A DNA stretch of 64,000 nucleotides, taken from positions 62,001-126,000 of the forward strand of contig OY253672.1 of assembly GCA_958009085.1 (NCBI GenBank), read 5' to 3'. The position numbers and the translations under genes are program-made. This document shows, piece after piece, positions 27,701 to 53,265 of the stretch (positions within the stretch are counted from its first letter, which is position 1; every line of letters begins with the position of its first letter). The notes beneath the pieces are model-generated. The model made no database searches and was not told the DNA's origin. It saw only the letters and a list, made by a program, of their open reading frames with translations. This DNA is from Protoeuglena noctilucae (lineage: Eukaryota).

Positions 27701-28075
27701 CCCGCCGAGTCCCCATGGGCAGCCGACGCGGCCGGGGCCAAGGCCGGCGGCGGCGCGCCGGTGCTCGTGTCGTCCCCCGAGAGCCGAGTGAGGCTGGGCA
27801 AGAAGGTCCTGCAGAAGATCGAATCGCTGGCGCGGGCAGGTGCGGGGCGGGCGGACGCCGAGACGGGCCGCCCGGCATGCGTTTGCGGCGTGACTGAGGC
27901 GTCGCGCTGGCTGACGCGCAGGGAGGTCGACGGCGGGCGGACCGATCGAGCACGACGCGTCTCGGTCCTCGAGGGAGGCATGGCTGCTTTCAACGTGGCA
28001 CCCCGGCGCGGGGCCGACGGGTGGCAGCGGCGCGCACTTGCGGGGGCCGGCGTGACAAGGCAGCTAGCCAGCTAG
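24761..28075 (+). CDS. Hypothetical protein, many exons (could be two genes)
   Basis: Series of coding-like exons with GT/GC-AG boundaries (ETLAKAVEAEYYWR; FSAFTSYTSKFLFPF; LPLVLLSLRGTV...ISEVFDPQGYYS). No family recognised. Confidence 0.55.
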
Positions 28076-28124
28076 GAATGAAAATGGAAACGGTCAATGG
28101 ACGTCACGTTTGAATCGAAGCGGG

Positions 28125-30175
28125 TCAAATCGGCAGCGGGCACAGGCTGCTGCAGTCGGTGGCAAGGAGGTCCTCGATCATGTCGACGTCGAGGGGGAGC
28201 GGGCTGGGCAGGGTCTCCACCTCCCACGAGCCCATCCACTTCAACAGGCTAGAGTCATGGGGCTGGGGCAGGGGCGCTGAGAAAGGCAGCACTTGAACTG
28301 GCGTGTTGAGCGCCTCGATGCCTGCAGAAGACTCTGAAGACGGGCGTCGTGTGTTGGGGCTCGGCATCTCTGTGGTTTGCACACGCCTCTTCTTTGATAG
28401 GGGTCGCGAAACTGAATCGTCCGAGTCCAGCGTACGCTCTGTTGTGCGAGCCTGGGGCGAGTCTCGCTTTCCTGACTTGAGACGAAGAACAGCGCGGTGT
28501 AACCCAGATGTAGAATTGCAATCTTCTTGCGAGGAGAAAGACGATGTAGTCCCCAACGAAGATGATTTAGCACCGCTTTTTCCGTGGCGCCTCTTGAATA
28601 AGTCCTTGTATCCTGCTTGTCTAAGGTTTCTGCGCACAATAAGGAGCCCCTGACTGGTGGCAAGAATAAACTGCAAATCTCCGCTGCTGCAAAAGATAGA
28701 AGCGACCAAGGGTCACCTGAGGTCAGCGCCAAAGTCTTGATTGGGGTCTTCGTATATAGCCTTATATTTCCCCTCTAATCTGCGAGTAAAAGATGCTGAA
28801 ACTGTAATATATACAAATGCACATATGCAACTTATCCTGTTCCACTGCACCGTACCTCTGCTTCATGTCCTGCAAATGCTGATACGCAGCTCCCGTCTTG
28901 TATGCCTTTTGAAGTTCCTCGGATATTTGCTCGATTAAATTTCTAAGACTCATAAGCTTCCTGCGAGAAAAAATGATAGACGATGTTATAAAGATAAAGA
29001 AACTTCCCTCTGTGCTTTGGACAAATTTTTAATATTAAACTGTAAGGCCACCGAGGAACGTTTTCCTTGCGGCAAAATTTTTTCAGAACTGTAATACCGA
29101 CGCCCAAAATGGTCACCGCCTCTCCAATAGGGAGGTGATACAACGCGGCAATCCTCCCTTTGGTCTGCGAACATTATAACTCTTTACAGTGAAAGCGATA
29201 CAAATGTCTCTTTCAAGATGATGCTCGATTTATGTGCCTTACCAGAAAATTGCTGGCATCTTTACAGCGGCTCAATGATTCCGGAAGTGTCTTCCCATGC
29301 AGAGCATCGGTGCCGCACTCTAACGCACAATTGTTGTAGGGGTAGGTCATGAGCTCATTGTAATAGCCTGCAAAGGAAGATAATAATTATTTAAATCATT
29401 CCAGTATCTTTAATATTAAGAAGTGTATTTATCATTTGGGTTGACGTGGAGCTGCAACACAATTGACGCGTACCTTGTGGTGTGTGCTGTTCCGGTCGCA
29501 GGGGCGTCAGACACGTCAAATTTCGAAGAGCATGTTCTGCGTCATACACGAGCTTCGGAGTCTTGACAGGTCCGAGTAGAGCACTTGGTGAGTAAGCGTC
29601 AATCATGATGTCCCCCATCATCCTGCAGGTATAAAGAGAGGTAGCCGCTGGTTGTTTTTGAAAGAACTTTCTGAAAAACGTTGCGAAGGACATGTTTGAG
29701 CAGGCGGGTGAACACAACAGGGGAGTGAAGGCATTTGTGGGTTCGAAAACATCAGCGAGTGTTTGCCAAAAGGAAAATGTCGCAGACATTTTGCGATGCA
29801 CGTATTGTGGGCCTTGTTCTGTCGATCGTACATGTCAAGTCCCACAAATTAGCACTAAAAGTCTCGACCATCATAACAAACAGAGCGGCAAACGTGTAAA
29901 TTGGCGCAAAATTAGTCGCACCGAGGGTGGCAGGTGCAACCACATGGATAGATAAAGCGTTTTAATAAGGGTTTGTAAAATGTCTTATCTAGTTGATACC
30001 TCATTAAATCATTACACTGCACTCCCGTAAAGCGCGAGGAGGCAAAGCGCAAGCGCAAACGAAGCATTTGCAAAGGGGAGCCCGGGACGAGCCCAGCGGA
30101 GCCAAGGGCCACGTTGGAACGTCGCAATCGGTTGGCTGACGTGCCGATAAGAAGTGGTGTGCGTCACCTGGTCAT
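28125..30175 (-). CDS. RWP-RK transcription factor, RKD-like
   Basis: Spliced LTKGRIAALYHLPIGEAVTILGVGITVLKKFCRKENVPRWPYR|KLMSLRNLIE, followed by AIYEDPNQDFGADLRNLRQAGYKDLFKRR, resembling the RKD C-terminal motif. First micro-exon proposed at 30175-30168; alternative start at 29621. One donor (29039) is non-canonical. Confidence 0.85.
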
Positions 30176-30465
30176 GGCGGCCTCCGGGTGGCTCCACCGC
30201 GAGGCGGAAGGGTGCAGAAAGGGTTCGAGACCTTCTCTCTTCCAAACCTCGATCTTTGGCGACGGCAACCTCGTCCCCTGCCCCCTCTACCTCTAGCCGT
30301 CGAAGCTAATTTTCTTGTAGCAACAAGCGCAGAGACAGTCGCAACGAAGCTTTAAAAGCGGAGAGGACGCTTCTGTTCGACGCACTCTGCACTCGTGCCC
30401 CACTACACGCGACCCAAAGCAGCTGATAGCATGCGTCGTGACTTGCGATGAAAAAATGCCAAATA
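30015..30465. repeat. Left arm of a degenerate inverted repeat (putative promoter plus first exon of the RWP-RK gene)
   Basis: Reverse complement of about 31405-31842. Shared blocks include cactgcactccc, gggccacgttggaac, catggcggcctccgggtggctcc, aaagcggagaggacgc, gcactcgtgccccactaca and gtgacttgc. Confidence 0.9.
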
Positions 30466-31332
30466 TTTTTTTTTTTGGCCACTGAGGAAGTCAAGAGGCT
30501 AAGCGGCTAGGATACCCTAAAAAACCCTACCTGCCGAAAGGGAGGCGGAGAAGATGTGAAGATGAAGAATAGACCTAGGAAGGAGAAAATTAGGAGGGGA
30601 TAGGAGGAGCCGCATAGACCAAAACCAGCTGCAGATAAGAAGAGCCACACCCAGCCCAGCCCCTCAGCCCGGTTCCCCCGGGACGTCGCTTGGGGGGGGC
30701 GGCTGTGGAGGTGGAGGAACCCGACGGGGAGGGAAGGATGAGAAGAGGTCCGGAGTGACGGTGAAGGCCTTGAAGCAGAAGCAGCAGAGCCAGCCGGAAG
30801 CCACGACGGAAGGGAAGGCTCGTGGAGGTCTTGGATCATAGCCGCAGCCAGGGAGGCGAGGCGGTTATGGAAGGCTATGGCCGACGAGATCCTGTGGCCG
30901 GCGTAGGAGACGATGCGAGCGGCCCCTGCCCACGCTGGGGCATGGGGAGGGTCGAGAAGCAGCATGGGGTGCGCCTGGGAGCGGATGGCCCGTGCGCCAG
31001 TAGCGGCGGGCAGTGATGATGGCATGGAGAGTCTCAGATCAGAAAAGGCGCCAAGCGGGGGACTTGAGGAGCTCTGAGCTGGCATGGGCAGCGCCAAAGC
31101 GGAGGAGGAGCGCAGTAGGGGCGCCACGGTGATAATATATGCCATCTCCAAAATATAGGAAACGGGGCGAGGTAATGAAGCTAGTAAGGCGGTGGTGCTG
31201 CGTGGAAACAATATTAAGTTTAGAAGTACGGGAAATCCATGCCTGGCGGTGGGGGTAGCGGATGAGGGCTAGGTGGGTGAACTTGGGACCCCTGCGCTTG
31301 TCGTAAGCGGAGATGGCGAGGTGGCCAGGGCT
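30466..31332 (-). mobile_element. 5'-truncated, degenerate Penelope-like retroelement (Naiad/Chlamys-type), with a terminal A-run
   Basis: Minus-strand translation LAISAYDKRRGPKFTHLALIRYPHRQAWISRTSKLNIVSTQHHRL resembles the PLE RT thumb (YDKR..F...P...S.I....Q..R). It is frameshifted, ends in an A-run at 30466-30476 and is homologous to 50761-51290. Confidence 0.7.
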
Positions 31333-31404
31333 AAAAAAATTCGAATTGTCAGAGCCCTTGTGTCCATGCGGTTTAAGTATCGAACAACCTCCCGTTCAAA
31401 CGCT

Positions 31405-31842
31405 GCATATGGGCAGTGTTGCATTGCAAGTCACAGCGTGTGCTCTCAGCTGCTTTTGCGTCGCTTGTAGTGGGGCACGAGTGCTCCGTGCGTCTGGACG
31501 GAGCGTCCTCTCCGCTTTCGAAGCCTCGTCGCTGCTGTCGCTGCGCTCGTTGCTACGACGATCTTAGTTGCCTTGGATAGAGGGGTAGCGGGCAGGGGAA
31601 GTGGTTGCCGTCGCCGAAGGCCGCGGCTCGGAAGACAGAAGGACTCACACTCATTTCGCCGACTTCCGCCTCGCGCCGGAGCCACCCGGAGGCCGCCATG
31701 AGCAGGTGAGGCATTCTTGTTCACATAAGTGCGTCAGCGAACCTATTGCGGAGTTCCAACGTGGCCCTGGGCTCGCACGGGAACAGGTGCGAATGCCTCG
31801 CTTGCGCTTTGCGTCCTCTGCGCTTTGCGGGAGTGCAGTGTG
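31405..31842. repeat. Right arm of the degenerate inverted repeat (putative promoter plus first exon of the PKS)
   Basis: See left arm. Contains GCCGCCATGAGCAG|GTGAGG at 31692-31711. Confidence 0.9.
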
Positions 31843-34800
31843 CTGGGTTAGCTGAATGTCGACCAAATGAAAGGTTCGAGTGACCCATGTGAGGGTTGCA
31901 CATTGCTTGCCATCCCCAGTTTTAGTGATGTAACAAGTTTGCGACTGACCCTTCACACCTTCGTTGCTCTTTCGCTATGGTGGATGTTTAAAGTGCTAAT
32001 ATGTGGGGCTTTGCAATGTAGAGTCGACAGCATAGGGCGCACAATATGTGCAGCACTGATGCCATGCAAAAAGTAGTTGGAAGGATGTTGCACGTAAGTA
32101 TATAAGTCTTAAACGTATGTATGATAGATATGACAAATTCGCATTGTCCGTCTTTACAGGTCGCCATGTGACGAGGTCCTCTATGAGGACTATGAAACAT
32201 CACCGGACCAGGCAAGTCCGGCCATTGCTTTTGTTTGCACAATGTAAATAAACGCCAATAACCACTAAATTTCAAAAACTGAAATTGCAAAACAACCTCG
32301 CTGCAGATGAGCTTTGGAAGCGACACCTCATCTTTTGCACCGTGGGCAGTCGACCATGCTTCTGCAGATGTCATATTCGTCATAAGTGCGACTGCAAGCA
32401 AGTACCCCACCAATGTGGCAGTCGCAGGGCCCGACTGCAGTGCCATTGTCAGTCAAAACAGGTGGGATGTTGACACATGGTCGTTTGCAGGCCAAGTGCC
32501 GTTGAGATTTTCGAGCTTAATGGAAGGTGTGGAAATGTTTGACAACAACGCGTTTAGCATGTCTCAGCAAGAGGTGAGGCACATGGATCCCCAAGCTAGA
32601 CTTCTTCTCCAGCAGACAGCAGAAGTGTTTACTTTTAGTGGGCACTTGCGTCTGAAGTCTCTTGAGATTGGGGTGGTTGTAGGTACATATCAGGACGAGT
32701 ATGGCCCCACAGCAGCGAAAGCTTTGAGCATGACATCTTACGACGTCACAAACATGGTCACATGCCCGCAAGCAGGGCGAATTTCGTATTTCTTCGGCCT
32801 TAAAGGCTCATGCTGTACAGTTGATACAGCGTGCTCATCAGCCCTTGTGTCGGCAAACCTTGCCGTGTCCTCGCTGCAAAGCACCAACTCTCCAGCACAT
32901 GTTGTTGCATCTGTTAATTTAGTAATGCCCATCATGCAAGCCGCGTGCACTGTCGCTAATATGCTGAGTGCAGATGGACGCTCAAAGACATTGGACGCAG
33001 CAGCAGATGGATACGGGCGTGCTGAAGCATGCTTTGTTCATTTGTTTGAGAGCCAATTAATTGGTGACGGCACTGACAAGGCAATGGCAATTGTAATGGC
33101 TTCTCATGTCAATCAAGATGGCCGATCCAGCTCTCTCACGGCTCCTCATGGTCCATCTCAAGAGCGGCTTGTGGTAGACGCTATGATCAAGGCACGAGTC
33201 GGGCCGAATGATGTCGGCTACTATGAACTTCATGGCACTGGTAAGTGCTGCCACTCGCACATGTTAACAACGCATTGATGTCTTTTGGCTTGAGTAGTAT
33301 GCCCTTCTCGCTATGCAGGTACAGCTTTGGGCGACCCAATTGAGATCGGGGCGCTGACCAACAGCATGTGCAGGGAACAAGATGCTTCAACGCCGTTATA
33401 CATCAGTGCCACAAAATCGCACTTTGGGCACAGTGAGACAGCAGCAGGGTCTGTCGGTGTCGTTCAGGCAATCATGCACCTTGATATTCTCGGCTCCAGT
33501 GACATTTTACATCTGCGTTCTTTAAATAATATAATAACAAATGTAATAAATAAGTCATACAAAAACGGTGGCAGGTTTGTTACGGTGGGTAGAGAAGTTG
33601 GTCCAACACCATTGCATAACATGACATTTGCTGGTGTCAGTGGATTTGCTTTCCAAGGGACTTACGCGCACATCATCTTAGGCCGCTCGCCGGCCTCGTC
33701 GTGCGTCCTAACCAAAAGCATGTTGGCATGGGAGAATGCCTTTTTCTGGATGTTCCCTCCGACTCTTGCTCCTCTTTCGGCAGTGCAGGTTGCGTCAAAT
33801 CATATATATATATATATATATTTATATACGCTGCAAATGTAGTGGCATGGGTAGACTTTGCCAGTGAGTGTCTGTACCACGTAAACGTTGGTGCTAATTT
33901 ATCTCTCACAAACGCGGTAGAAGTAAAAGAACTAACAAATAAAAACCGTGTTGGCGATAGCAATGTCAGAATTCGCCTTAATGTGGATGATGGAAAGATA
34001 TTTGTTTCATGTGGCGATGCAACATTCGCTGAGGCAACAACATCAACCATGAATAACTGTGCACAGGAATGCAGGAGGTGTCCTTTAGTCAGCCTGTCGC
34101 GACAGACAGTTGTGACTCCAGCTTGCACTCTTGGCTGCGTGTTCCAAAGAAATGCTGATTTATCGCCTCTCCTTGCAACGTTGAGGTGCGCGACATCCAG
34201 TGTCGATACCACTCCATCTCCTTTGCAGCCTAACTACTCATTTTGGCACAGGCAACCGAATAGTCCCACGTGGGTGTCGCTTGAACATCAACGGAGTGCC
34301 GTGGTGGGCCGTGCCGCTACAGACAACAGCGAGCAATCATGTTGTTTTGTATTGGATCCCGCAAAGCTTTATTGTCATGCAGCACTCAGCAGCCCACTGA
34401 ATTTTAGGCTAGCATATGTTGAGGAGGTACAGGCATTCCAAAGCGCATCCTCGACGTTACCCACATACAGCAGCAACATTTTGTGCATAGAGGGTACAAA
34501 ATCATTCATTTACTGTCAAAAGTCTTACTATCTGTCTGTTTTACAAACTTTGATAACACAAGGTGTCAAGGATGTGAAATCAGTAGATAAAACATGTAGC
34601 TGCTTTGTGACCTGTCATGCAGCCCCACGTGATGACAACGTGGGTGCTCTATTTAGGGTTGCAAGATCAGAACGGGGATTGGAGCATTGGACTTCATACC
34701 AATCAAGTTTCCTTTCAAATATGGCTACTGTAAGGAGCAGCACCGATAACGACTGCATGTCCTTTTCAAACATATTATTTAACTCTTGCCTTACGGAAGC

Positions 34801-37800
34801 AAGGCACAATAAACGTGATGACAACACGCCCTCAAACGTTTTGATTGTGGGGGGCCTTGGTGGCATTGGAGGACTTTTCCGCACGTGGTTTGCAAAACAC
34901 GGCTGCAACTGTGTTCTACTAGGCCGCTCGGGGCGTGGAAAACTTGACCCTGTGCAGCATTATAGCAAGTCAATACGATGCGATATATCCAAGCTCAGTG
35001 AGTCGTACGCTCTCCGGCTTGGTTTAGAAGAAAAGCCGGATTGGATAATAAATTCTGGAGGTCTTCTTCAAGATGCAAGCATTATGCGACAAACGCCACG
35101 TCATCTGCGAAACGTCCTCGCTTCCAAAACCATAGGATCGGCAAACCTGACGTTCGCCAGTACTGCAGCTGCGGTATCATCTTTGTTACTGTTTTCATCT
35201 ATCAGTGGATATTTCGGGCTGCCTGGGCAAGCTAACTATTCCTACGCAAACGCGAACCTTGACAAAATGGCGCTCTCAAATAGGAATATGGGTTTCCAAA
35301 CAACAAGCGTTGCGTGGGGAGCATGGGCTGGAGCTGGCATGGCCGTGGCGGATGAAAAGATCGTTTCGCACCTCGCCGCCCTTGGCCTGGGAACGATAAG
35401 TCCAGAACAAGGCCTTTGTTTACTTGGATCCTCGCTGGTGATGCCGAGCAGCTATATCTTTTTCAGTCAAGTAAATTGGAGTTTGATCCTACAAAAACTT
35501 CCTTTGCTACAAAAAGCAATATCCATAGAAAGCAGTTCTAGACATGAAAATATAAGTGCATTACCTGATACTAGTTCGTCCTTAGCTGCTATCAAACCAA
35601 GAACTTTGTCTGAGAACAGTGTGACTTCGACTATTTTGCAAAGCGTCATGGATCTGTCAGGCTCGCCAGTGAACAGAGAATCATCGTTCCTGGACACAGG
35701 TTTGGATTCCCTTGCTGTCGTTGAGCTTGGTAAAATGATTTCCTCAGCTCTTGGGCTGGAAGTCTCAGTCACAGATTTATACGACTTCCCGACTCCAGAG
35801 ATGCTAGCCAAACATCTATTATCGGAAAACAATTCCTTGGATGGAAGTGTCAACGACAGCACCTTGCTAAGAAATCCATTTAACTATGTTTCAAGCAACG
35901 AACATGTCGTGAAGAGTGCTCAGCCTGCCAGCTTTATTAGCAAAGATAATGCCCAAATTGTTGAGGTGATAGGGTATGCGGGAACTATGCCCTCCCTTAG
36001 CTTGCTTGACCCTTTCGACGACGCAATTACCAAACAAAGTCGATGTGGAGCAACAGTGGAGGAAGACTTGGCCGACGTCCAAATTAACTTCATGTCTGCG
36101 ATTAACGACGTTGCTTCTTTTGACAATGCATTGTTTTCATTGTCAACAGCAGAAGCTGACATGACAGACCCTCAACAAAGAAAGCTGCTTGAGACAGCAT
36201 ATGTTCTTTTAATGGACAAGGGGAGCAGTGCTAAAGAAACATGCTCTCACTATGTCGGGGCGCAGCATATGGAGTACATCTTTATGCTCCCACAGAAATC
36301 TTTAACTGCACAATCAGCAACGAGTTTTCCTTTGAGCGTTGTTGCTGGTCGTATTGCTTTCGTATTTAACTTGCGAGGAGAAGCCGTTGCCGTTGATACA
36401 GCGTGCTCGTCTTCGCTAGTGGCTCTACAGCAAGCTTCGCAGAGCATGACTTTAATGGGCGAAGCCATTGTCTCCGGGGTTTCCATTATTAGTTCGCGAT
36501 TTACTACAAAAGTAACTCAGCTAGCTTCGATGCTGACCATGGACGGCCGGTGCAAGTCTTTGGATGCTGCCGCTGACGGCTATGTTCGGGCCGAGGCCTG
36601 CGTTGCGCTCGACCTGCGTACACGCCCCTCCTGCGAAGCGGAGTTGGAGCCAGCCAGTGGCCACGGGTTGGAGGGGCGAAGCGCGTTGGCTGTTTTGGGC
36701 ACTGCGGTCAATCAAGACGGTCGTTCGGCCTCTCTGACGGCACCAAATGGCCCCTCGCAGCAGCGTGTGATTCGGGCCGCGTTGGAGGCCGCGGCCCTTA
36801 TGCCTGGTGATGTTTCGCTGCTCGAGATGCATGGTACGGGGACGGCACTGGGAGATCCCATCGAAGTCGGAGCAGCCATGCAAGCGCTCTGTGGGGGGAC
36901 AGGAGCACGTGTACCTTCGGGGCGCATGCAGTTGACGGCCGCCAAGTCGCGCTTCGGCCACGCTGAGCCCGCAGCAGGAATGATTGGGCTTGTCAGCGGA
37001 GCATCCGTGTTGACAGGACTTTCGTTCAACGCCGTGACGCACTTGCGCCACGTGAACCCGTATGTGGCGGGGGCGTTGGGTGGCTCGGGCCGTCAGCCCG
37101 ACCGTGTCGTGGGAGTGGCGCGACAACCTGCCCCAGCAAGCGCTGGAAGCTCCCGCGGCCTCACCATGGGCGTCAGCGCATTCGCTTTCATGGGCACAAA
37201 CGCCCATGCTCTTGTGTCCAACTTAAAATCCGACGCCACGGCGCCGGCGGCACTTGTCTGTGGAAATGACATTCCTTGGAAAAAGCACGTGTCTTGGTAC
37301 GTGCCCCACGCGGGAACTTACGATGTTCTTCGTTACCCAGCAATATTGGCTGCCTCAAGCCAGAGCTTTGCTGCATCATTCCTCTGCTCTTTGAATGGAA
37401 TGTTAGCAAACCTGCTTAGTGAACACGTTGTGCAAGATAAGAAAGTTGTTCCAGGTTCTTTCACGTTGTCACTTCTGCAGGATGCTTGCAGGCTGCTTCA
37501 ACCTGTGCCAGGTCGAAATAATCACATGATACAAAATGTTGCCTTTTTTAAACCTGTCATTTTGTCCGACACAATAAATATGCAAATAAATGAAAACCGA
37601 CTTCAGCTATTAAACAAAACAAACTCTGTATACGCAGAAGGATTGGCAAATGTGCAACTAACCCAAAGAAAATATAAATCACCACCTTGTAACAAAACAC
37701 ATCTAGTTACAAAAGTAGCACTCTTTGCAACGAATGCAGTAGCCTCGTTAGCAAAGAAAGATGTAAGAAGTTTATGGAACAATGACATGAATCCAGCGTT

Positions 37801-40800
37801 GCTGGACTCTCTCTTCCAGTCCTCTTGGTCAGTGCAGCGTGCTGGTGAGAAAACTCTGGTGCCATCTTACGCGCTGTGCTTTTGGACTTCAAAAGAGCAC
37901 ATAACGGAGTTTATGCTTTCGGCCAAAGTCGTTTGTGAAAAGAATGCTCTTATTAGCTCCTTTTGCGTAGAATGTATGGAAAATGTTGTAGGCATTACCA
38001 GCGGACTAGTAGGAAAGGAAATCAAACTCAACAATGGAAAGATGTTACATGATTCCAACGCCTCAGCGTTACTGATGGCAGAGACAAGCTTTTGGGCGAC
38101 TCACGTCGCAGACAGTCCAAAAAGTTCTTCAGTGTTGTCTAAAAGTAAACACTTAACCGTGCAAGCTGGTGCTTGTATGATTACTTTACAGCACAATGTT
38201 TACTTCCAAAACAACACACCGTTTCATAATAACTTTACAGTTAACACTAGAAATGCATTTGATAGCGCTGCAAGATCTGCGCAGCGTGAACGGACGTCAA
38301 CAAAAACAGTCCCTGCCAACAATTGCGTCTCCTTACTCGTGCGCTTGAAAAGAAACTCTTTGGCTCTCTCCAATCCATCCGCACCGTTTACTGCAATTTC
38401 AGGAGGAACAAGCGGACTTGGGTCTTTAGTTTCCACGTTGGCTCTGAGGTGCGGCTCAGTACCCCTGTTGCTGTCCAGGACTGGGCAACTTCCTGAAATC
38501 AGCTTGCCGTCTTGCAGGGATATGTGCATGGTCGTGAAAAACGACGTGTCGATGAAAGAAAGTGCTCCTTTGCTTCGTGATCTTCATGCACGCTTTGCAT
38601 CTACGTTATCTTTTGTTCATGCTGGAGGCGTTTTAGCTGACGCGCTGCTTTCCAATCAAAATATATCCAAATATCGGTTAACCTCAGCACCAAAGTTGCA
38701 TGGACTTCAAAACGTCATAAATGTAGAATGCATTTGTTCGTTTGGATATGTCGTTGCGTTTTCGTCAATATCAGCATGGCTAGGGGGCATCGCTCAGGCC
38801 AACTACTCCATGGTCAATGCGATGATGGATAATATGTGCATCGACCTTCAAAACAATGGATTGGCAGCAACCAGCATTCAGTGGGGAGCGTGGGGCAGTG
38901 TAGGTGTTGCTGTTCAGGCATCTGGCACATTAATGAGGGCGGAAAAGGCGGGCTTGGGAATCATCAAGCCACAGGACGGGTTGCGAGCATTTTCAGAGGT
39001 AATAGCTCGTATAACCTATCCTGTTGTACTTTGCTCCCCTTTCAATCTACAGCGATTATCTCAAGAACTCCCTGATGACGCCGCAAGATTCGAAGCTAGT
39101 CAAGACAAGAAGCAACATAAAGTCGCTCAACAGGTACTCAAAAGAACGAAAGACTTCACTGAGGAGGTCAGGGCGCTGGCGGCCGGTCTGACCGGCGGCG
39201 AAGTGGCCGCGGACGAGCCCTTCATGGGGGCTGGAATGGACAGCCTCGGCGCCGTCGAGCTCCGAAATGTGCTCAGCCAGCGCTACAATGTGAGCCTCCC
39301 CGCAACGGTCATGTTCGACTACCCGACGGCGTCCGCCCTGGGGCTGTACCTGTCTGGCCTGCAGGAGGACGCGCCGGAGGGCCGGCACGATGAGCCGCGT
39401 GACGCGGTGGCCACGGCAGCGGCCCATGGCGGCCGCGCGGGCTTGCCGAGCCGCGAGGAGGTGTGCAAGCAGATCGTGGGCATCGTGGAGGGCATGCTGG
39501 GGCGCGAGGTAGACCCGTCGATGCCCTTCATGGAGGCGGGTCTTGACTCACTGGCGTCTGTGGAGCTGACGAACGCCGTGGCGGGCCGATTCCAGGTGTC
39601 CCTGGGGGCGACCGCCATGTTCGACCACCCAACCCCTTTGCAGCTTGCTCGTGGCATTGCAAGTCTTGCGCTACCAGCATCGGTTATGGACTTAGAACTT
39701 TCGCATGACTGTTGGAAACCCTCTTCTGTTTTTATCGTATCGGCTGTCTCAAATCTGCCAGCAGCTTCAGCGTGTTCATCTGATTCTGTTCAGGTAATTC
39801 CTTACTCACGCTGGGACTCAGAGGAGACAACGCTTCCTTTTAAAGGAATTTTACCGAAATTTGCAAGTCTCCTGAGCTGTCCTGGAGAATTTGATGTAGC
39901 GCTTTTTGGTTTGTCGTGGGCAGAGGCATCGATGATTGATCCTCAACATCGAGCAGTACTTGAGACTCTTCTATCCGTATCTGCGTCCTCTGGGACTACA
40001 AAAAAGGACTACGGCATTTACGTTGCTGTGCAGCAAATGGAGTATGGAAAGACTTTCCCTGCAATCCTCAGCAGCCCATACATAACGACAGGATCAAATT
40101 TGAGCGTTGCTGCAGGAAGAGCAGCCTATTTTTATGGCATGGAATCCGAGGCGGTTGCCATTGACACTGCTTGCTCATCGTCGCTTTCTGCAATACACCT
40201 TGCACGTCAAGCTGTAATGTCACAAAACAGTCCACGGTTTGTTGTTGGTGTCAACTATACTCTTTTACGGGAAACAAATGAAGGTGCTGCTTGGTCCTCA
40301 ATGCTGACCATGGACGGCCGGTGCAAGTCTTTGGATGCTGCCGCTGACGGCTATGTTCGGGCCGAGGCCTGCGTTGCGCTCGACCTGCGTACACGCCCCT
40401 CCTGCGAAGCGGAGTTGGAGCCAGCCAGTGGCCACGGGTTGGAGGGGCGAAGCGCGTTGGCTGTTTTGGGCACTGCGGTCAATCAAGACGGTCGTTCGGC
40501 CTCTCTGACGGCACCAAATGGCCCCTCGCAGCAGCGTGTGATTCGGGCCGCGTTGGAGGCCGCGGCCCTTATGCCTGGTGATGTTTCGCTGCTCGAGATG
40601 CATGGTACGGGGACGGCACTGGGAGATCCCATCGAAGTCGGAGCAGCCATGCAAGCGCTCTGTGGGGGGACAGGAGCACGTGTACCTTCGGGGCGCATGC
40701 AGTTGACGGCCGCCAAGTCGCGCTTCGGCCACGCTGAGCCCGCAGCAGGAATGATTGGGCTTGTCAGCGGAGCATCCGTGTTGACAGGACTTTCGTTCAA

Positions 40801-43800
40801 CGCCGTGACGCACTTGCGCCACGTGAACCCGTATGTGGCGGGGGCGTTGGGTGGCTCGGGCCGTCAGCCCGACCGTGTCGTGGGAGTGGCGCGACAACCT
40901 GCCCCAGCAAGCGCTGGAAGCTCCCGCGGCCTCACCATGGGCGTCAGCGCATTCGCTTTCATGGGCACAAATGCTCACATCTTGCTTTCGTGTGAAATTC
41001 CAAGCTCAGCAGCATGTCACGCAGACAGACTGTTACTCTTCCAACGCCAAAAATGCATGCCTGACCATGAGAAAAACTCGTTTATAGTCAAATGTATGTT
41101 TGAAAACATACCCTCAAAAGCCGTGAAGCTGTTTATTTCACTTTCACATCCAGCAAACGTGGACCTTAGAGAGCACGTCGTTGCTGGAAATGCAATTATG
41201 CCGGGTGTGGGAATGATGGAAGTGATGATGCTGGCCCAAACTCAGTGTCTAGAAATTGATAATACCAGCAAGTCGTTCTTGGCCCGTGTCATTGTCCCTG
41301 CCCCTCTTTTACTTGCACAAACTACTTCGTGCATTGTTAGGGCAAATTTGGACGACGGAAGCCTGTCTCTCGAATCCAAGAATTCTGTTGTGTTCTGTAG
41401 AGGCCAAATGTCGTGCCAAACGAACAAGAAGTCAAATGATAATAACAAGAATATAGAAGACATTGATGTGTTACATAGACGACGTTTATCAAAAACCACA
41501 GCTGGAGTGAGATTCCCAGGGACTGTAGGCAATGTCTACCCCTTGGTAACCAACGCTGGCAAATCTTCGCTTCATCCAGGAGTAATGGACAGTTGCATTC
41601 AGATCTTAACGGCGATCTCCCGTAATGACGACAAAAGTAATAAAGTTCCACTCGTTCCAATCGGCGCTTCCGCATTAATGCGATCCAATTTTAACCACGG
41701 TCAAATGGTTGCATCCGCGCAACCAGTTGATGCTGGCAACGTCCAGACGTCTAACCATGACATAATCGAAAATAACAGCAGACACGTCAGCTTCATTTTT
41801 GGCATGCAATTTAAACGGTTTGTGCAAAAGCTGTCAGCAAACAAACCAAAAGCGATCCACGACCTCGTTGCGAAACCCATGCATGGCCCCCGTGCGGTGG
41901 GGTTAGGGACGGAAAACCGTCTGACAGATGCTTTGCTCCACCCCGTCTCGCGTGTGTACGAGCCAGCCGCATGCCCTAATGACCGTCTCTCGGCCAGGCT
42001 GGCGCGAGCCGACGTAGTGGCGTGGAGCGTCAGCCAAGCAAGGAGCGCGGTCCGCTTAGACCTCTCGTCGTGGCCGGCAGCCACGTCGGGCAGCCTGGAC
42101 GCCCTGCACCGCATCGTCTCGCAGGGCTCCCATGTCGAGAGCCGGGACGGTGCCGTCGCCCACGTCACGGCAGGCCCATCGCCTCTTAATGGCATGACAG
42201 GGAACCTCGCTCGCCGTGCCGCTCTCTCAGGCATGCAGCGGGCTGCGGCGGCCGAAGCCGTTGCGTCCACTTGGCACCAGCGACCAGTGGCGGGGGCCGT
42301 GGTGGGTCGGGTGTCACTGTCATCAATGCAGACTGCTGGGCGGCTCCAGGCGTACGCGGAAGCGCGCAGCCGCGCGCCTGCGGCAGCGATCTCGGGCGGG
42401 ATGAGTGGGATCGGCCTGCTGACGGCGCAATGGCTGACGGGCTCGCTGACGAGGGGTCTCTTGCTCCTGGGCCGTTCGGTCCGACTGCCTGCCGGGTCGG
42501 CGGGACAGCTGCTGACTGGCCCCCACGTCATGGCCGTGGTCCGCTGCGATGTGGCGTCCATGGAGGAGACACGCGGGTGCTTGGTACAAGTCACAGCTGC
42601 GCATGGGCTGGGGAGCGCTGTGGAGGCGATGTTGCACTCGAGCGGAGTGCTGCGAGATGCGGTGCTGGTCAACCAGACGGTGGCGCAGATGCGGGAGGTC
42701 ATGGCGCCCAAGGTGGCGGGGGCCGTGCACATGCTCGAACAGGCCTCTGCGCTGGCTTTGGCCGGCTCCGCGCTCTTCTCTTCCATCGCGGCACTGCTGG
42801 GGAGCCCAGGCCAGGCAAACTACACCGGGGCGAACAGCGCGGTGGACGCTATGGCCTCCGAAGCCAAACAGCAAGGGCTGCCGATCTGCAGCGTGCAGTG
42901 GGGCGCATGGGCGGCAGTGGGCATGGCCGTCAACGAGGCGGGGACGCTGGCGCGGACGGAGGCGGCGGGTCTGGGTGTCGTGCGCCCGGCTCAGGGTCTG
43001 GCCATGCTCAGCGCGGTGCTGGATGCCAGCATGTCCGCCGACGCCACGGTGACGGCGACGCCATTCGACCGGGTCAAGCTGTCGCAGCGGTTCCCGGCGG
43101 TGTTGGAGCTGCTGGAGGGGTCCGAAGTTGTGAGAGGCGAACGCATGCAGGACAGCCGCACTGCCGTTGTTGCCCAGGGAAGCCGCACCGGGCATGCGCA
43201 CCGCTCGCGCAAATCGGTGGCGGTGCTGACTGAGGAGGTCAGGGCGCTGGCGGCCGGTCTGACCGGCGGCGAAGTGGCCGCGGACGAGCCCTTCATGGGG
43301 GCTGGAATGGACAGCCTCGGCGCCGTCGAGCTCCGAAATGTGCTCAGCCAGCGCTACAATGTGAGCCTCCCCGCAACGGTCATGTTCGACTACCCGACGG
43401 CGTCCGCCCTGGGGCTGTACCTGTCTGGCCTGCAGGAGGACGCGCCGGAGGGCCGGCACGATGAGCCGCGTGACGCGGTGGCCACGGCAGCGGCCCATGG
43501 CGGCCGCGCGGGCTTGCCGAGCCGCGAGGAGGTGTGCAAGCAGATCGTGGGCATCGTGGAGGGCATGCTGGGGCGCGAGGTAGACCCGTCGATGCCCTTC
43601 ATGGAGGCGGGTCTTGACTCACTGGCGTCTGTGGAGCTGATGAACGCCGTGGCGGGCCGATTCCAGGTGTCCCTGGGGGCGACCGCCATGTTCGACTACC
43701 CGACGGCGCTGGCGCTTGCTGACGTCGTGAGCAGGGAGCTTGGGGACGTGTCCAGGGTCGAGGACGTAATGCTGGCCCCCGTGGGATCACGGCCAGCTGA

Positions 43801-44634
43801 GGTGAGCAAAGATGTTTGGGTGGCGGCCATAAAATCCTTTTTTTGTCCTGCTGTATGTCCAGGGGGTTAAGCAGTGATTAGTACTATAAACTTGCTTGCA
43901 GGGACTAGATCCGAATGGTTCAAAGCATCGGCAACATGTTATCTTCACGTTTGTGAGCGACGAGGGTGGAGTACAGCTTGCCACAACCACTGTGCGGCGG
44001 TTCACAAGGGGTGAACTTGTAATTTTGCAACACAATAACGATATTACGAGTCCTGAGAGCGTCGCAAGCTGCGCTGACTTTGTTCAGCATGTGTGTGCGT
44101 CATCTCTTACGTATAGTATTGCTGCACATGGAGTCAAAGCCATCTTTGCCCGCGAAGTTGCCGAGGAAATTGTAAGACGCACGCGGAGGCAACCTGAATT
44201 CGTCGCTCTTGTCAACCCAAGGTGTGTAAAAGAGCATCGTTTAGTTGATGCACTTGTAAGCAATATCTTGCACCCAAACAGTTGCGACAATTTTTGGTGC
44301 GCAGGTTGGATTCCACCATCGGCTCGTTCTACGTACATAACGAGACAAGTTTAAATATCATTACCGCAAGATGTCAAGAAGCAGATGATAATTTCCAGGT
44401 GGGCAGAAAGTTAATGCTTGTTACAGTGTTTATATTATTTGTTTCTGCTTTTTGCCTTTTGCTTCTCTATTTCTTTAAAATAATCTTGAGTTTTTTTCTA
44501 AGCAGATGGGTACTTTTCGGACGTTGGACTTGGATAGTGAAACTGCATGCACACGTACTTCTAATTTGTGGCTTTTGGTTGCAGCAGCTTTTGCCATGTT
44601 TGCTGCAATTCTTATTGTGTCAATATGGCTGTAA
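31698..44634 (+). CDS. Multimodular type I polyketide synthase, AT-less: KS-(DH)-KR-ACP / KS-DH-KR-ACP-ACP / KS-DH-KR-ACP-ACP / TE-like / TM
   Basis: Three KS domains with DTACSS, HGTGT and GH(S/A)E(T/P)AAG; KR motifs GGLGGIG, GGTSGLG, GGMSGIG with catalytic Tyr; DH LREHVVAGNAIMPG; five ACP G(L/M)DSL motifs. Introns at 33241-33318 and near both ends; frame break at the (TA)n tract near 33810. Core 32307-43870 is firm; the terminal exons are inferred. Confidence 0.93.
36530..37200 (+). repeat. PKS internal repeat A, copy 1 (KS C-terminal half, 671 nt)
   Basis: Apparently identical to 40301-40971. Confidence 0.95.
39158..39625 (+). repeat. PKS internal repeat B, copy 1 (ACP-ACP, 468 nt)
   Basis: Near-identical to 43229-43696; one difference seen (ACG vs ATG). 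Confidence 0.95.
40301..40971 (+). repeat. PKS internal repeat A, copy 2
   Basis: Apparently identical to 36530-37200. Confidence 0.95.
43229..43696 (+). repeat. PKS internal repeat B, copy 2
   Basis: Near-identical to 39158-39625. Confidence 0.95.
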
Positions 44635-44931
44635 TTTTTGTGTTACATACCTGATAAGCAGGGAAATCCAACGGTGGTTGTTCACGCATATAATGTAATG
44701 CATTTCTTGGTTGAATCCGAACTTAAATAATGACACCATTCAGCCTGTATGTCCAGTCTCAGCCACGATAGCAATACTACTTTCAATCACAATTACGAAA
44801 CTGCATGACGCCCAGAAACCTGCCTTCAGCAGCTGGTGGCCATTGCGGCCCACGTTTGCATCGCAAGAAAAAAGAGACATGCAAGGGCGCTCAGGGCGCC
44901 GCTAGTCCACGACTGGGAGCTGTGCTTCCCC

Positions 44932-47900
44932 TCAGACTCTGGACCATGACCGGACCCTGCGTGCCTGCGAAGATGGCAGTCCTGCATAGGCAACAAGAGG
45001 AATATGCATCGTAAGTCTCTGCCATCGCACACCCTCCCCTAGTCCCGTCCTCCGCTGCATCTCACCCGCCGACCGCCCACCATCCTCCCCCTCTCCACCC
45101 CCTGACAGCGGCAGGTCCCGACCGCTGGAGCTGGCCTTGGGGCCAGGGCGCCCGCCGGGGGCTGCGCCAGTCCGCTGGCCGCCCTGCTGAGCGGCCGATG
45201 TGACAGACGACGAGTCAGGGAGCGACGCTCCATCCTGGGACGTGACGCGTGACGCCCGGGCGTTGCGTGCGGACCGTAGGTAGCTCGAGACGGATGGCAG
45301 ACGTATGCGCTCCCCCGCAGCCGTCTGAATCTCGCTCGTTCCATCGGGCAGAATGGTGGACGAGCCTCCCACAAGCATGGCAGGCAGTGCCAGGGAGCCG
45401 TCCTCTCCTGTGATCCACGACCCCATCGTGGCCAGCACCTGGTGATCCCCATTGTCGAGCGTTGCGCCCCGGCTCGTTTGCCGGGACAGAGGTGGGCGGG
45501 CGTGCGCCAGCGCCAACCCCGGCCCCACAGCAGGCGCGTCGCGGTCCTTGACCGGCACCGTCGACCCCACCCGCCCCAGCGCCGGCGGCAACTCCAGCGC
45601 TGGGGCTCGGCTGCCCGCCGCCTGAGAGGCAGAAACCCCAGCGCCACTTGGTTGCCGCTGCAGGGGCGGCTTGAGTGGGGTCAGCCGGCCCGGCTTGGAC
45701 GGCTGCAACTCGGTCACTGCCGTCGGTCCTGCGTGGGGACGACCGCAGCGGGGGAGTCGCGCCTGCTGTTGCTCCCTGGCGACAAACAAACGTCAGAAGG
45801 ACGAGCATGACAGCTGTTGAGCGGCAGGAATCACCGAGCACGCGGACTCCGGCATTCCTGCGCTCCATGTCGATCGCCCTGTCTTGGCCCATGGTGCTGC
45901 TGGGTGGCTGGCGCATGGGGTCGTGTGGAGATAGGGACGGGCTGCTGTGCGTCGCCCCCGCCGTCCTGCGGACGAGGATCTGAAGACCGCATCACTCTGG
46001 CCTTGCCCCTTGGGATGCGCGCCCCAGACATGGCTGGTGACAAGCCCGCGCGGCGGTAGGCACGGCCACCTGGCGGGCTCGTCTGCGCTCGCGTCCGTCC
46101 TGCGCGTTCGGCTGCTGGACGCTTGCTCCTGGAAGAGCCGCCTCCGCGGCAGCGTCGGGGAGTCCACCGGCACACCCCCCGCGTGCTCCCCCGTCGTGTC
46201 CCCGTACACAACGCCCACGTAGAACTGCGAGGGTAGGTTGCAATCGCGGTCGCTGGAGGTCCTGCTTGCTAGGGTAGGAGCTTGCGCGCGACACGTGTGT
46301 GCAGGCGACATCCCTCGCCTGGGGTCCCAAGGAGGAAGCCTTGGTGAGGTCGCTGCAAAGCACGTCCTGGGGCAAGGACGCCTGGTGGAGCGGTCCCGGG
46401 CGAGTCACCGGGGCCGTGACCTGTCGACGGATACCCTGGGCAGACTGTCCCGGCAGCAGCTTCTGCATGGCCGGCACAAAGACGGCATCGCGGCTGGCCA
46501 TGACCGTCGATACCTTCTTGGCCGCCGCCGACTGGTAGTAGCTCTGGACCATCTCGCGGCCCGCCGTGACGCGCCGCTGCAGCTTCTCCTCCTCGATGTC
46601 CTGGTGGATCTGGCCCAGCGCCTGGTACGCCGCCACCAACTCGCGCGTTGCCCGCCGGGCGGCAATCGTCTCCTTCAGCTGCCCCTGCAGGTCCGGCCGC
46701 AGCTCGAACAGCCGCTGCATCTCCTCCCGACGGATGCACACGGCCCGGACGCACGTGCGGGCGCGGCCGCTGGCCGTCCGGACCATGCCCGGGGACATCA
46801 CCGCCATCTCTCCCACAAACTCCCCGGGCCCGTGCCGCGCCACAAGCGCGTCTTGAGGGTTCATGCTGCTCAGCACCACCGTGCCGATGGACGCCGCCAT
46901 GGAGGCCGTGGCCTCAAGCATACGGTCAAGCTCCCGGTCCCCCTTGTAGACGATGCCCGCCCCCGTGGGCTCCTCCAGCTCCCGGGCCGCCTCCGCCGCA
47001 TGGACGACGTCCTCCTCCGTGTACACCTGCAGGGCCACGCACGACGTGACGCATCATGTCGCTCCTCCCCTGGCACGGGGTGGACCCCAACGCTCCCGCG
47101 GCGGTGACGCCAAGGCAGGCTCCTGCCCCTCGCCTGTCCACTCTCCACGTTGAGCTCGCTTCGCAGGGACTTCTTCCGCGCGGGCGCCGGTGCTCTGCCC
47201 CCGTTCGCGCTGGTCTCCGCGGCCTGGGCGACAAGAGGCACCCCGCCTGCCGGGGGCGACACGGGCACGTCATGGGCAGTGGCGGAGGACCGCAGGCTGC
47301 TGTGCGGGAGGGCGCCACTGGCAGTCCCGCCAGGCACTGCGAGGCCCGTCCCGCCGCGCACCCACGGCACCTGGCCGGGGCTCTGCCGCGTGGACTCGGC
47401 GCCGAGCGACAGGCGAGACGGGCGACGGAGGAGCCCGGGTGACGAGGTCCCAGGGAGCCCAGCCGTGGCAGTGGCAGCCGCAACGCCGGCGTGGCGGGAG
47501 GCCGCGCGGCGCAGCTGTGGCGGAGTGGAGGGTCCCCAGCGGCCGGCTCCCCGTCTGGGCTCGCCCTCGGCCTCCTCCTCCTCGGCGATGTTGGCGAGGG
47601 AGAGCTTGCGGGCCGTGGACGCCCGCGCGGGGACTGCGTCCTCCGCCCCCAAAGGGTCAGGCCCCGCGGGGTCCTCTGCGTCTGCCGCCAGGGACCGCTT
47701 GGAGGCCGACTGGCGGAGCGTGGCTGCGTCCTCGGTCCCCCGGAGGGAGCTAGGAGGCGCCATGTCCGGGTCGATCGATGCCTGGTGCCGACGGGCCACT
47801 GCACAAAGGGCAGGCCGGGAAGCTGGCGGGCCCCTGCCCTGGGGCGGTCAGCTGCGCCGGGTGCACGCACGCAGGCCTCACCGACGCGCATGAAGTCCGT

Positions 47901-50215: not shown

Positions 50216-50753
50216 GGCACTCAAACCTTTGCTACGCGAGGTGCAGCGCACGGCAAACTTTTGTCGCCGGGGCCTCCAGAGAGGGCGACGCGGACGCCTC
50301 CCGTTCTGCGCAGGGGGGGGGCTTCGGCGGAGTCTCAGCTCGCCGCCAAGCCGCGGGCGGCGAGTGCGAGAGAGACAGACGCCCTAATTGGGGACTGAAG
50401 AAGCGACCGTGAGAGACCAGGAGAGCCGGAAAGCGGCGCAGGGGCGCGTCGCATCCGGGAGGCCCACGCACCGAGCACGCAGCCCCCGGGGGCTGCCGTG
50501 GGGGTTCCCTGGCCGCGCCAGGTTATTGGGTCCCAGAAGCAGCCGCGGCAGGCGTCGAAGGGCGGTGCGGCGGGATCGTCTGCCCAGTGCGACGCCCAGA
50601 AGTGCGCGGCGCCGAAGTCGCAGGGCAACACCGCAGCGAGCCAAATTATGCGGATTACTTTGGCGGCGTCGACGGCCCGCCCTCGCGCGTTGCGCCGAAC
50701 GGGCTCCCGACCCAACTCCGCTCCTCGAAATGCAGCGAAGGTATGACGAGCGC

Positions 50754-51290
50754 TTTTTTTGCCAATGAGAATTCAAAGAGATGACGTCGATGAGGGCACC
50801 CTCAAAACCCTACCCGCCAGAAGGCTACCCCGCTAGCGAGGCAAAAGAAAGAAGGAGGAAGGGAAGAAGAAGAAGATGGCCGCCGAGCTCACTGCGTTGG
50901 AGAGGAAAAACACAGTGTGAGGAAAAACAACCAACGAGCCCCTTAGCCCGGCTCAACAGGAAGACGACGGGGGGGCGGCGGCCTTGGAGGGGGGAAGGGA
51001 GCAAAGAGAGCCTGAGAGACAGAGAGAGCCTTGAAGTAGATGCCAGGTGGAAGGGAAGGATCATAGAGGTCCCGGAGCATAGAGGCCGTGACCGGAGAGC
51101 CGAGGCGGGCGTGGCAGGCAAGGGCAGAGGAGATCCTGTGGCTGGCGTAGGAGACGATGCGCGCGGCCCTGGCCCACGCTGGGGCATCGGGAGGGTCTAG
51201 GAGCAGCATGGGGGGTGCACCTGGGAGCGGATGGCCCGTGCGCCAGTAGCGGCGCGCGGTGATGAGGGCATGGAAAGGGTCGCTCAACAG
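50754..51290 (-). mobile_element. Second, shorter 3' fragment of the same Penelope-like family
   Basis: 51130-51274 closely matches 30886-31028; aaaaccctac is shared near the 3' end; A7 run at 50754-50760. Confidence 0.7.
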
Positions 51291-53171: not shown

Positions 53172-53265
53172 CGGGGCCCCGCCGCTGGGGCGGGGTCGCT
53201 GAGTGGCGCGCCGCCTGCCGGCGTCCTACTTCTTGAAGCTGAGGGCTCAAGGCGCTGCCAGCGTC

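Follow-up and report, generated by a model that had tools for sequence, protein, structure and literature searches.

Here we describe a 17-kb island of low guanine-plus-cytosine (GC) content within a 64,000-nt stretch of the Protoeuglena noctilucae assembly GCA_958009085.1 (contig OY253672.1, positions 62,001 to 126,000 of the forward strand; hereafter the window, in whose coordinates all positions are given). The island carries a putative RWP-RK transcription-factor gene, an old repeat element, and a gene predicted to encode a modular type I polyketide synthase (PKS) of the trans-acyltransferase (trans-AT) type. We hold, with moderate confidence, that it belongs among the low-GC outlier regions described at PKS genes of marine picoalgae, is native to its host, and undergoes little GC-biased recombination. 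If this is correct, the link between low-GC islands and trans-AT PKS genes would span a third green-algal lineage beyond Chloropicon and the Mamiellales, in a genome of 70% GC and with an unusually sharp contrast. The GC mosaic found inside a single PKS exon would then amount to a natural experiment, in which only copied segments are GC-rich while unique coding DNA bases away sits at the non-coding level, and would allow a direct test of what GC-biased gene conversion contributes to the base composition of algal genomes.

Base composition of the island

Computed by segment, GC content is 0.524 in the island (28125-44850) and 0.705 in both the left flank (1-28000) and the right flank (45000-64000). 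Unique parts, which make up most of the island, lie at 0.43-0.46, such that the contrast with the flanks amounts to 18 points on average and to 25-27 points for the unique parts. Between 28001 and 45000, GC falls below 0.60 in 15 of 17 1-kb windows (range 0.446-0.592), the remaining two being at 0.698 and 0.650. Outside this interval only one of 47 such windows does so (0.573 at 18001-19000), and its low value is an artefact of a 200-N run at 18434-18633, which also identifies the window as a gapped scaffold. The sliding-window profile therefore bears out the drop in GC, and its placement at 28.1-44.8 kb, that a first-pass annotation of this sequence had described by eye. The edges of the island are gradients of approximately 0.6-1 kb, with GC declining from 0.84 to 0.39 over 27.5-29.0 kb and rising from 0.36 to 0.70 over 44.5-45.2 kb.

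The same annotation had noted a change in codon usage, and this too is found. GC at the first, second, and third codon positions is 0.50, 0.44, and 0.43 in the low-GC parts of the PKS exon (0.426 at third positions, GC3), compared to a GC3 of 0.83-0.96 in the flank open reading frames (ORFs) confirmed by Pfam, which had been pre-selected at GC3 >0.82 before this range was read. The GC3 of the low-GC PKS parts is at the level of non-coding island DNA outside the repeat (GC 0.433-0.435). A shift in the observed/expected ratio of CpG, a further measure that the annotation had pointed to, is present but slight (0.82 in the low-GC PKS parts versus 0.92-1.00 in the flanks), and this drop is too small for methylation-driven decay to be accepted as the cause of the low GC. 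When the 13 island ORF pieces were scanned against Pfam, one RWP-RK and two ketosynthase (KS) matches were obtained, and the 3,416-aa ORF was found to carry KS, ketoreductase, acyl carrier protein, and dehydratase domains; a transcription factor and a PKS are thus, as had been claimed, all that is recognisable in the island.

A mosaic polyketide synthase gene

The spliced PKS model (Table 1) comprises 3,801 open codons with a single, terminal stop. Pfam matches identify three KS, three ketoreductase (KR), and five acyl carrier protein (ACP) domains and one clear dehydratase (DH) in module 3, in the order KS-(DH-sized region)-KR-ACP / KS-(DH-sized region)-KR-ACP-ACP / KS-DH-KR-ACP-ACP, where the KS-to-KR spacing of approximately 330-465 aa leaves space for one DH-sized domain only. 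No acyltransferase, methyltransferase, enoylreductase, or thioesterase was identified in the PKS by Pfam, and neither the 3,416-aa ORF nor the exons before it contain a match to PF00698 (Acyl_transf_1) at E<=0.001. As read from the translations, the catalytic Cys-His-His residues (DTACSS, HGTGT, GH(S/A)E) are present in all three KSs, whose identity is also given by Pfam ketoacyl-synt and Ketoacyl-synt_C matches, and the KR Tyr and ACP DSL serines are kept in every copy.

Both PKS introns are of the GT-AG type. The first (33241-33318, 78 nt) interrupts the HGTGT motif of KS1, which is restored upon its removal, and the second (33789-33868, 80 nt) holds a (TA)9 run at 33804-33821. This run was considered as a possible frameshift and rejected as such, since the intron contains it and keeps the frame; a near-identical environmental protein (P0002) implies one TA unit fewer, with the result that a prokaryote-style gene call reads through. 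The long PKS exon lies in an open frame of 3,416 codons (10.25 kb), which cannot be open by chance because approximately 60% of it is sequence of 45% GC. The gene is, or was until very recently, under selection. It had been described as a giant PKS, a term that does not fit a protein of approximately 3,801 aa and three modules, well below the size of the giant algal PKSs.

On its domain content we classify the predicted product as a three-module AT-less (trans-AT type) chlorophyte PKS. Such an enzyme would add three malonyl-derived units and reduce the beta-keto group after each addition, followed by dehydration in module 3 at a minimum. The AT (as a free-standing protein), the loader, and the release enzyme that it would need must be supplied by genes elsewhere. 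None of these was found among the 26 flank ORFs scanned, an AMP-binding_C fragment aside. The latter is a plus-strand exon (24000-24269) with an AMP-binding enzyme C-terminal domain, located in GC-rich DNA approximately 4 kb left of the island, and could be a starter-unit loader of the AT-less PKS or a mere neighbour.

The first-pass annotation had described an AT-rich island. Its overall low GC stands, but the island is not uniform, in that four stretches inside the PKS gene (Table 1) have a GC content of 0.65-0.71. Taken together, the high-GC segments of the gene are at 0.673 (GC3 0.76) and the low-GC segments at 0.455. Every high-GC stretch is either a duplicate of 99.6-99.85% identity or the KR3-ACP-ACP end. 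Immediately upstream of patch A, the N-terminal halves of KS2 and KS3 are low in GC and clearly diverged; over their whole length the KS2 and KS3 regions are 69% identical, with identical C halves. The KR3 part at 41.9-43.2 kb is high in GC and has no second copy in the window, although a further copy may exist elsewhere.

A proposed mechanism for the mosaic

GC-biased gene conversion accompanies recombination in many eukaryotes. We propose that it upholds the 70% GC (GC3 near 0.9) of the host genome, and that a rarely recombining segment would drift to mutational equilibrium; in the island, synonymous, non-coding, and intronic DNA alike are at approximately 0.43 or lower. Within such a segment, stretches that are repaired against each other, whether module against module or against a paralogue, would still undergo heteroduplex repair and be pushed to high GC. 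Under this proposal the match in position between GC-rich patches and duplicates, as finely as the profile resolves it, arises because repair between the copies pushes GC up. The patches may alternatively be tracts imported from a GC-rich paralogue, for which the same picture is expected.

The suggestion in the first-pass annotation that the island is a recombination-suppressed or hemizygous block can accordingly be retained in its first half: suppressed recombination is a reasonable reading, given the agreement of GC3 with the non-coding level and the literature on low-GC outlier regions, whereas hemizygosity finds no support. Depth was considered as a measure of copy number or hemizygosity and was dropped, the depths in the two DNA data sets described below being inconsistent.

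Continuity in independent sequence data

The sequence occurs in marine metagenome runs, among which its source may be found, and in runs labelled with one organism. In two further runs (X7 and X8) the share of words in common with the window was 0.66-0.68, a value set aside as evidence for presence or absence. The window was compared with 31-mer graph contigs of two DNA runs (X1 and X5), which derive from two samples of one study and are labelled as one organism, and with contigs of two metatranscriptome runs (X9 and X10). X1 and X5 contigs match the window with no differences over 28095-30666, 31240-36559, 37171-39187, 39596-40330, 40942-43258, and 43667-46400, and break at repeat borders, as a 31-mer graph requires. 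Low-GC and high-GC segments are connected by 30-nt contig overlaps at every patch border and by the one 3,416-codon frame. Patch A is represented in both runs by one 671-nt contig at approximately 2.0-2.8x the depth of its neighbours, and in X5 a contig tracks the window up to 43209 and then diverges. The right GC boundary is spanned in both runs by a contig of 7,117 nt, with no branch there. Continuity of most of the island is thus observed in independent data.

At the left junction (Table 1) the contigs overlap by 30 nt. In X9, an RNA contig of the left-flank plus-strand gene has its poly(A) end at 28124, directly beside the stop codon of the RWP-RK gene (28127-28125). The two genes converge without a spacer, which argues for real adjacency at this junction, and they must overlap in their 3' untranslated parts. 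Beyond 28124, contigs of both X1 and X5 offer two continuations of the left flank: one is the window sequence, the other a second contig with an extra A. This second continuation (followed in X1, with a matching extra-A contig in X5) extends to 28150 and from there resembles 28290-28315 at 21 of 26 positions (81%), including an exact run of 12 letters, for which we estimate a chance expectation of approximately 0.008 in the window on both strands. It suggests that the RWP-RK 3' end exists in a further, diverged copy, be it allelic, paralogous, or a local variant. A simple two-haplotype bubble limited to the island is made less likely by the lack of branching at the right boundary.

On the right side, an X10 RNA contig covers 44702-44980 and then splices to 45065, defining an 84-nt GT-AG intron (44981-45064, minus strand) of a gene for a protein kinase with a cyclic nucleotide monophosphate (cNMP)-binding domain, whose 3' exon (44702-44980) sits in low-GC DNA. 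Apart from those on the flanks, further X9 and X10 RNA contigs fall only at 31117-31327, 36548-36838, 40605-40794, 42089-42295, and 43280-43533, and could stem from paralogues or from DNA; no conclusion is drawn from the uncovered parts.

These data bear directly on whether the island is an assembly artefact, in which two organisms were joined or PKS paralogues were collapsed or mixed. The apparent origin of the window in a marine metagenome and its 200-N gap would be in keeping with faulty assembly, as would the left junction, where no single contig bridges and depths differ across it; in addition, the near-identical protein P0002 from ENA (2,107 aa) resembles what this gene would give if one module were collapsed at the ACP repeat. 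We nevertheless consider an artefact very improbable, given that independent X1 and X5 contigs reproduce the island letter for letter and bridge its right boundary, that the overlaps at every patch border agree with the single long frame, and that an exact 30-mer joins left flank and island in both runs.

Affinity of the PKS and origin of the island

Relatives of the PKS were sought among proteins of 1,878-5,978 aa only. KS trees were calculated from 51 KS domains of 18 proteins, namely the window model and 17 proteins that we chose from the 120 listed; four of 55 KS matches were dropped (envelopes <330 aa), and separate trees were made for the N halves and the C halves. Each of the two places all three window KSs in one clade of 23 rows, whose members are the window and nine AT-less eukaryote-type PKSs and nothing else; its support in the Shimodaira-Hasegawa-like approximate likelihood ratio test (SH-aLRT) is 97 in the tree of the low-GC N halves and 100 in that of the C halves. 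The nine include proteins of Chloropicon, Monoraphidium, and Coccomyxa and six without an organism name (sources jgi, eukprot, and Logan). The other eight proteins, five of them with bacterial names, contribute 28 KS rows that lie outside this clade. The closest named matches of the whole PKS are likewise from Chloropicon primus (31% identity), Monoraphidium, and Coccomyxa, and PF00698 is listed for none of them. In the C-half tree, the C halves of Chloropicon KS1 and KS2 are identical.

Searches for the PKS in other collections were negative. In JGI metagenome contigs, scans with the PKS ORF and with a relative (P0005) returned 33 and 11 pattern matches, respectively, none of them confirmed; a scan of viral contigs with the KS alignment, which was weak in that it used two peptide patterns only, returned 151 pattern matches, again with none confirmed. 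Look-ups in a protein atlas gave nothing beyond family-level labels.

An alternative to a native origin is that the block came from a foreign source (a lower-GC alga, a giant virus, or another donor) and was overwritten piecemeal by conversion from GC-rich PKS paralogues of the host. The abruptness of the GC contrast noted above would be in line with such an origin, as would the repeat element within the island and the length of the end branches leading to the low-GC N halves of the KSs (0.82-1.21, with the median at 0.48), and the X5 contig that diverges after 43209 hints at a GC-rich paralogue as a possible donor of the patches. Yet low- and high-GC KS halves belong to the same algal AT-less clade, seven introns are proposed in the two genes, and the gradients of GC at the edges fit evolution in situ. 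The ends of the island genes also interlock with those of host genes, with the poly(A) site at 28124 beside the RWP-RK stop on the left and the 3' exon of the right-hand gene in low-GC DNA, and no viral hallmark domain was present among the 13 island ORF pieces scanned against Pfam, which gave only RWP-RK and PKS domains. We therefore regard a foreign block as improbable. Recent import from bacteria or viruses is unlikely because of the KS affinity, the introns, and the interlocked gene ends taken together; the argument of the first-pass annotation, that spliceosomal introns speak against recent bacterial transfer, is upheld by GT-AG introns in both genes (two in the PKS gene and at least four in the RWP-RK gene) and by the grouping of both PKS composition classes with algal PKSs. 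From these features of the sequence, the island is judged to be native algal nuclear DNA rather than a recent bacterial or viral insert.

The RWP-RK gene

The exon model of the RWP-RK gene (Table 1) is a putative one, read from the sequence. Its GT-AG introns measure 106, 76, and 30/33 nt (found by script) and 78 nt (found by hand), that of 30/33 nt being very short. The RWPxRK motif is split: RWPY closes one exon, and RKLMSLRNLIEQISEE opens the next, 80 nt downstream (RKLMSL on the second exon), which begins at 28960 with (R)KLMSLRNLIEQISEE. The 80-nt insert inside the motif is rich in A and T. The sole GT...AG pair at this spacing leaves the frame one base short and then leads to a stop, while in-frame GT-AG alternatives either lose WPY (read by hand) or insert 12 residues (43-nt intron 29003-28961). 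This split is not an assembly error, because the same exon-intron text, with one residue different, is present in a second environmental contig (P0242) and the junction sequence is identical in the X1 and X5 contigs. It points to either a non-canonical splice or damage to the gene.

An exhaustive search with the domain exon yielded 354 cluster representatives at E<=0.001; a word-indexed search of longer proteins with the 41-aa exon gave three candidates, none of which scored. The nearest domain relatives, which carry the unbroken motif RWPYRKLxSxxKLIxS, are small proteins or gene-call fragments of marine metagenomes, with one from the stramenopile Pelagomonas calceolata and one from Dunaliella, and none of them is a named MID or RKD. 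Several short RWP-RK proteins or fragments (P0249-P0254, P0261, P0284, P0287, P0318, and P0344), which come from marine metagenomes and Pelagomonas, have in common the motif (V/M)Y(H/D/E)LPIxEAAxxLxxGVTVLKK(Y/F)CR...RWP(Y/F)RKLxSxxKLIxS, and together they may represent an undescribed RWP-RK subfamily of marine protists.

The gene had been labelled RKD-type in the first-pass annotation, a label whose sole basis would be the absence of other Pfam domains: neither PB1 nor any further domain was detected in five candidate exon ORFs. The putative gene does resemble the MID and RKD regulators of gamete identity in having an RWP-RK domain and no second Pfam domain in its candidate exons. It differs from them in that its nearest domain relatives are the unnamed small proteins of marine protists, and in the 80-nt AT-rich insert that splits its motif.

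Comparison with outlier regions of other algae

The island unites markedly lower GC (0.524, unique parts 0.43-0.46, versus 0.705) with a modular PKS, the combination by which low-GC outlier regions are recognised. Higher expression, larger numbers of introns and transposons, and spatial insulation are further traits of such regions; in the island itself the count is seven proposed introns across its two genes, plus a single repeat element.

In Chloropicon, short PKS-containing regions on three chromosomes are reported to be lower in GC (Lemieux et al. 2019, PMC6731263), and the available parts of that report give no RWP-RK gene, of nine, in a large-indel or exceptionally repeat- or polymorphism-rich region. 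Chloropicon primus appears to be the closest parallel in that it is a marine green picoalga with low-GC regions at AT-less multimodular PKS genes and identical KS halves between modules. Its host GC is given as 57.5%, compared to approximately 70% here, and the contrast is correspondingly larger in the present case. The portions of the paper that we draw on mention neither an RWP-RK neighbour nor a GC mosaic inside a gene (PMC6731263).

In the Mamiellales, a candidate mid-like RWP-RK gene is described on the low-GC big outlier chromosome (BOC) of Ostreococcus tauri, along with natural PKS deletions (Blanc-Mathieu et al. 2017, PMC5498103). PKS genes are described as a conserved feature of the low-GC BOC1, often beside Mutator-like elements, with similar regions in Pelagomonas (bioRxiv 10.1101/2025.04.21.649811). 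On the basis of these partial accounts, BOC1 and the island are alike in low GC, PKS, a nearby transposon-like repeat, an RWP-RK gene, and introns. BOC1, however, is hundreds of kb in length with many genes, compared to 17 kb and two genes here, and high expression, insulation, and two haplotypes are documented for BOC1 only.

As for the enzyme, Shelest et al. (2015, PMC4661987) characterised chlorophyte multimodular PKSs as AT-less, devoid of methyltransferases, and shaped by module duplication, the KS and ACP domains of different modules being 98-100% identical. As far as the consulted text of that study goes, the island PKS matches them in every respect tested (no AT, no methyltransferase, several modules, near-identical KS and ACP domains); those PKSs are of MDa size, as opposed to three modules and 3,801 aa here. 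The PKS1 of Chlamydomonas reinhardtii, reported to be required for the zygospore wall and desiccation tolerance (Heimerl et al. 2018, as cited in PMC11808170), is a green-algal type I PKS like that of the island and, in the sources used here, the only one with a known biological role; it is encoded by an 83-kb gene, unlike the smaller island PKS.

Possible relation to a mating-type locus

The island could also be a mating-type-like or sex-determining idiomorph, with the RWP-RK gene as its core and the PKS as linked cargo for the sexual cycle (e.g. for the zygote wall). This overlaps with the outlier-region reading, since a low-GC outlier region can also be a mating-type region. In its favour are the presence of an RWP-RK domain gene inside the island, a composition that fits the long-term absence of GC-biased recombination, the second, diverged continuation of the left flank (21/26 like 28290-28315), and, from the partial sources cited above, the co-occurrence of a candidate mid-like RWP-RK gene with PKS genes on the BOC of Mamiellales (PMC5498103; bioRxiv 10.1101/2025.04.21.649811) and the need for PKS1 in the zygospore wall and desiccation tolerance of Chlamydomonas (PMC11808170). 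Against it, known algal mating-type regions are far larger than an island of 17 kb with two genes, no strain without the island has been seen, and the single 7,117-nt contig across the right boundary in X1 and X5 is unexpected if two haplotypes rejoin there. A paralogue or a local indel could likewise account for the second version at the left, the closest relatives of the domain are small proteins of marine metagenomes and Pelagomonas rather than named MID or RKD proteins, and the RWPxRK junction is possibly broken. Moreover, the low-GC PKS regions of Chloropicon carry no mating-type signal in the reported data at hand (PMC6731263). On balance we think an idiomorph unlikely, and the proposal in the first-pass annotation of a gamete or zygote-wall module, or of a mating-type-like one, finds no direct support: the PKS is small, and Chloropicon has such regions without that signal. 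The regulator and the PKS are adjacent in the island, and a functional link between them, or their co-regulation, is a candidate only.

To our knowledge, no mating-type locus is known in the group to which the host belongs. A bolder form of the same idea is that the island is one of two deeply diverged idiomorphs of a miniature RWP-RK sex-determining locus in a pedinophyte-related alga, outside the Mamiellales and volvocine algae, such that low GC, RWP-RK, and PKS would be the conserved core of large outlier regions and the second contig at 28124-28150 the edge of the other idiomorph. We consider this quite unlikely and offer it as speculation; still, the RWP-RK neighbour and the second, diverged continuation together provide a concrete spot at which to seek a mating-type locus.

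Our preferred reading, a native low-GC outlier region of low recombination, is itself subject to several reservations. Low GC would be a proxy only for recombination, and the slight depletion of CpG (0.82) may not require methylation-driven decay. The depth of patch A (2.0-2.8x) fits two copies or three alike, and the high-GC patches could derive from a GC-rich paralogue and not from biased repair between two modules. The left junction is based on a 30-nt contig overlap with no bridging contig, and the depths on its two sides are discordant (4.7 in the flank versus 33-110 in the island in X1; 165 versus 83-120 in X5). Finally, the RWP-RK gene may be damaged, as its RWPxRK junction has no in-frame GT-AG intron that keeps the motif. 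Low recombination, biased gene conversion, and the chemistry of the enzyme are accordingly put forward here as what the sequence suggests.

Other features of the island and flanking genes

The coordinates of the features discussed are summarised in Table 1.

Table 1. Features of the low-GC island, in window coordinates
Feature	Position	Strand	Remarks
Left junction	28095..28150		left-flank contig ends at 28124, island contig starts at 28095; exact 30-mer common to both, in X1 and X5
RWP-RK transcription-factor gene, putative (span of coding sequence)	28125..29789	-	six proposed exons, ~431 aa if all join in frame
RWP-RK gene, proposed exons	29789-29474, 29367-29243, 29164-29040/29042, 28960-28856, 28779-28717, 28686-28125	-	stop codon 28127-28125
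RWP-RK domain exon, up to ...VPRWPY	29042..29164	-	PF02042, E 9.8e-14, 51.4 bits (cut-off 29.3), profile positions 5-44 of 49
Repeat element with long inverted arms	30014..31841		arms 30014-30460 and 31412-31841, ~440 nt, ~78% alike; GC 0.59; ~1.8 kb
AT-less modular type I PKS gene, predicted	32307..43870	+	exons 32307-33240, 33319-33788, 33869-43870; 3,801 aa
High-GC patch A copy 1, C-terminal half of KS2	36527..37200	+	99.85% identical to 40298-40971 over 674 nt
High-GC patch B copy 1, ACP-ACP of module 2	39158..39630	+	99.6% identical to 43229-43701 over 473 nt
High-GC patch A copy 2, C-terminal half of KS3	40298..40971	+	duplicate of 36527-37200
High-GC PKS 3' end, KR3-ACP-ACP	~41900..43870	+	GC3 0.76-0.86; includes patch B copy 2 (43229-43701)
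Low-GC tail without recognisable gene	43871..44850		GC 0.435; ORFs 43890-44354 and 44249-44698 without Pfam match

The inverted-repeat element between the two genes appears, from its sequence, to be a member of a dispersed repeat family: its core (30808-31028) recurs at 51049-51274 in the GC-rich right flank with 84% identity over 226 nt. X1 and X5 contigs branch repeatedly within it (loose ends at 30496, 30592, 30714, 31008, 31169, and 31333), as expected of a multi-copy repeat. No transposase was recognisable in the element, and no common word of 7 or more letters, as a target-site duplication would leave, was found beside its arms; an assignment to Mutator-like elements was accordingly not supported. 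A scan of 27000-46000 against Rfam at E<=0.1 returned no matches, and the inverted repeat is therefore not a known RNA gene. The low-GC tail at the other end of the island is probably where the PKS gene and the minus-strand cNMP-binding kinase gene converge with their 3' ends.

In the left flank, five differences from the window (at 26602, 27941, 28033, 28057, and 28092) are common to an X5 DNA contig and an X9 RNA contig, with X1 agreeing with the window; at least two haplotypes of the left flank are thus in circulation.

Among the 26 flank ORFs scanned against Pfam are a dynein heavy-chain C-terminus, WD40 proteins, the cNMP-binding protein kinase, a longin SNARE, a Band 7 protein, and a DnaJ protein. 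The best named match of a 717-aa WD40 ORF is in Pedinophyceae sp. YPF-701 (53% identity over 86% of the query), whose genome is given a GC content of 70% in the part of a preprint available to us. On the basis of this one flank gene, the host would be a marine green alga with a pedinophyte as its nearest named relative. A long WD40 ORF on the minus strand (11507-13660) contains, at 13413-13623, tandem copies of a 46-nt unit with approximately 90% identity.

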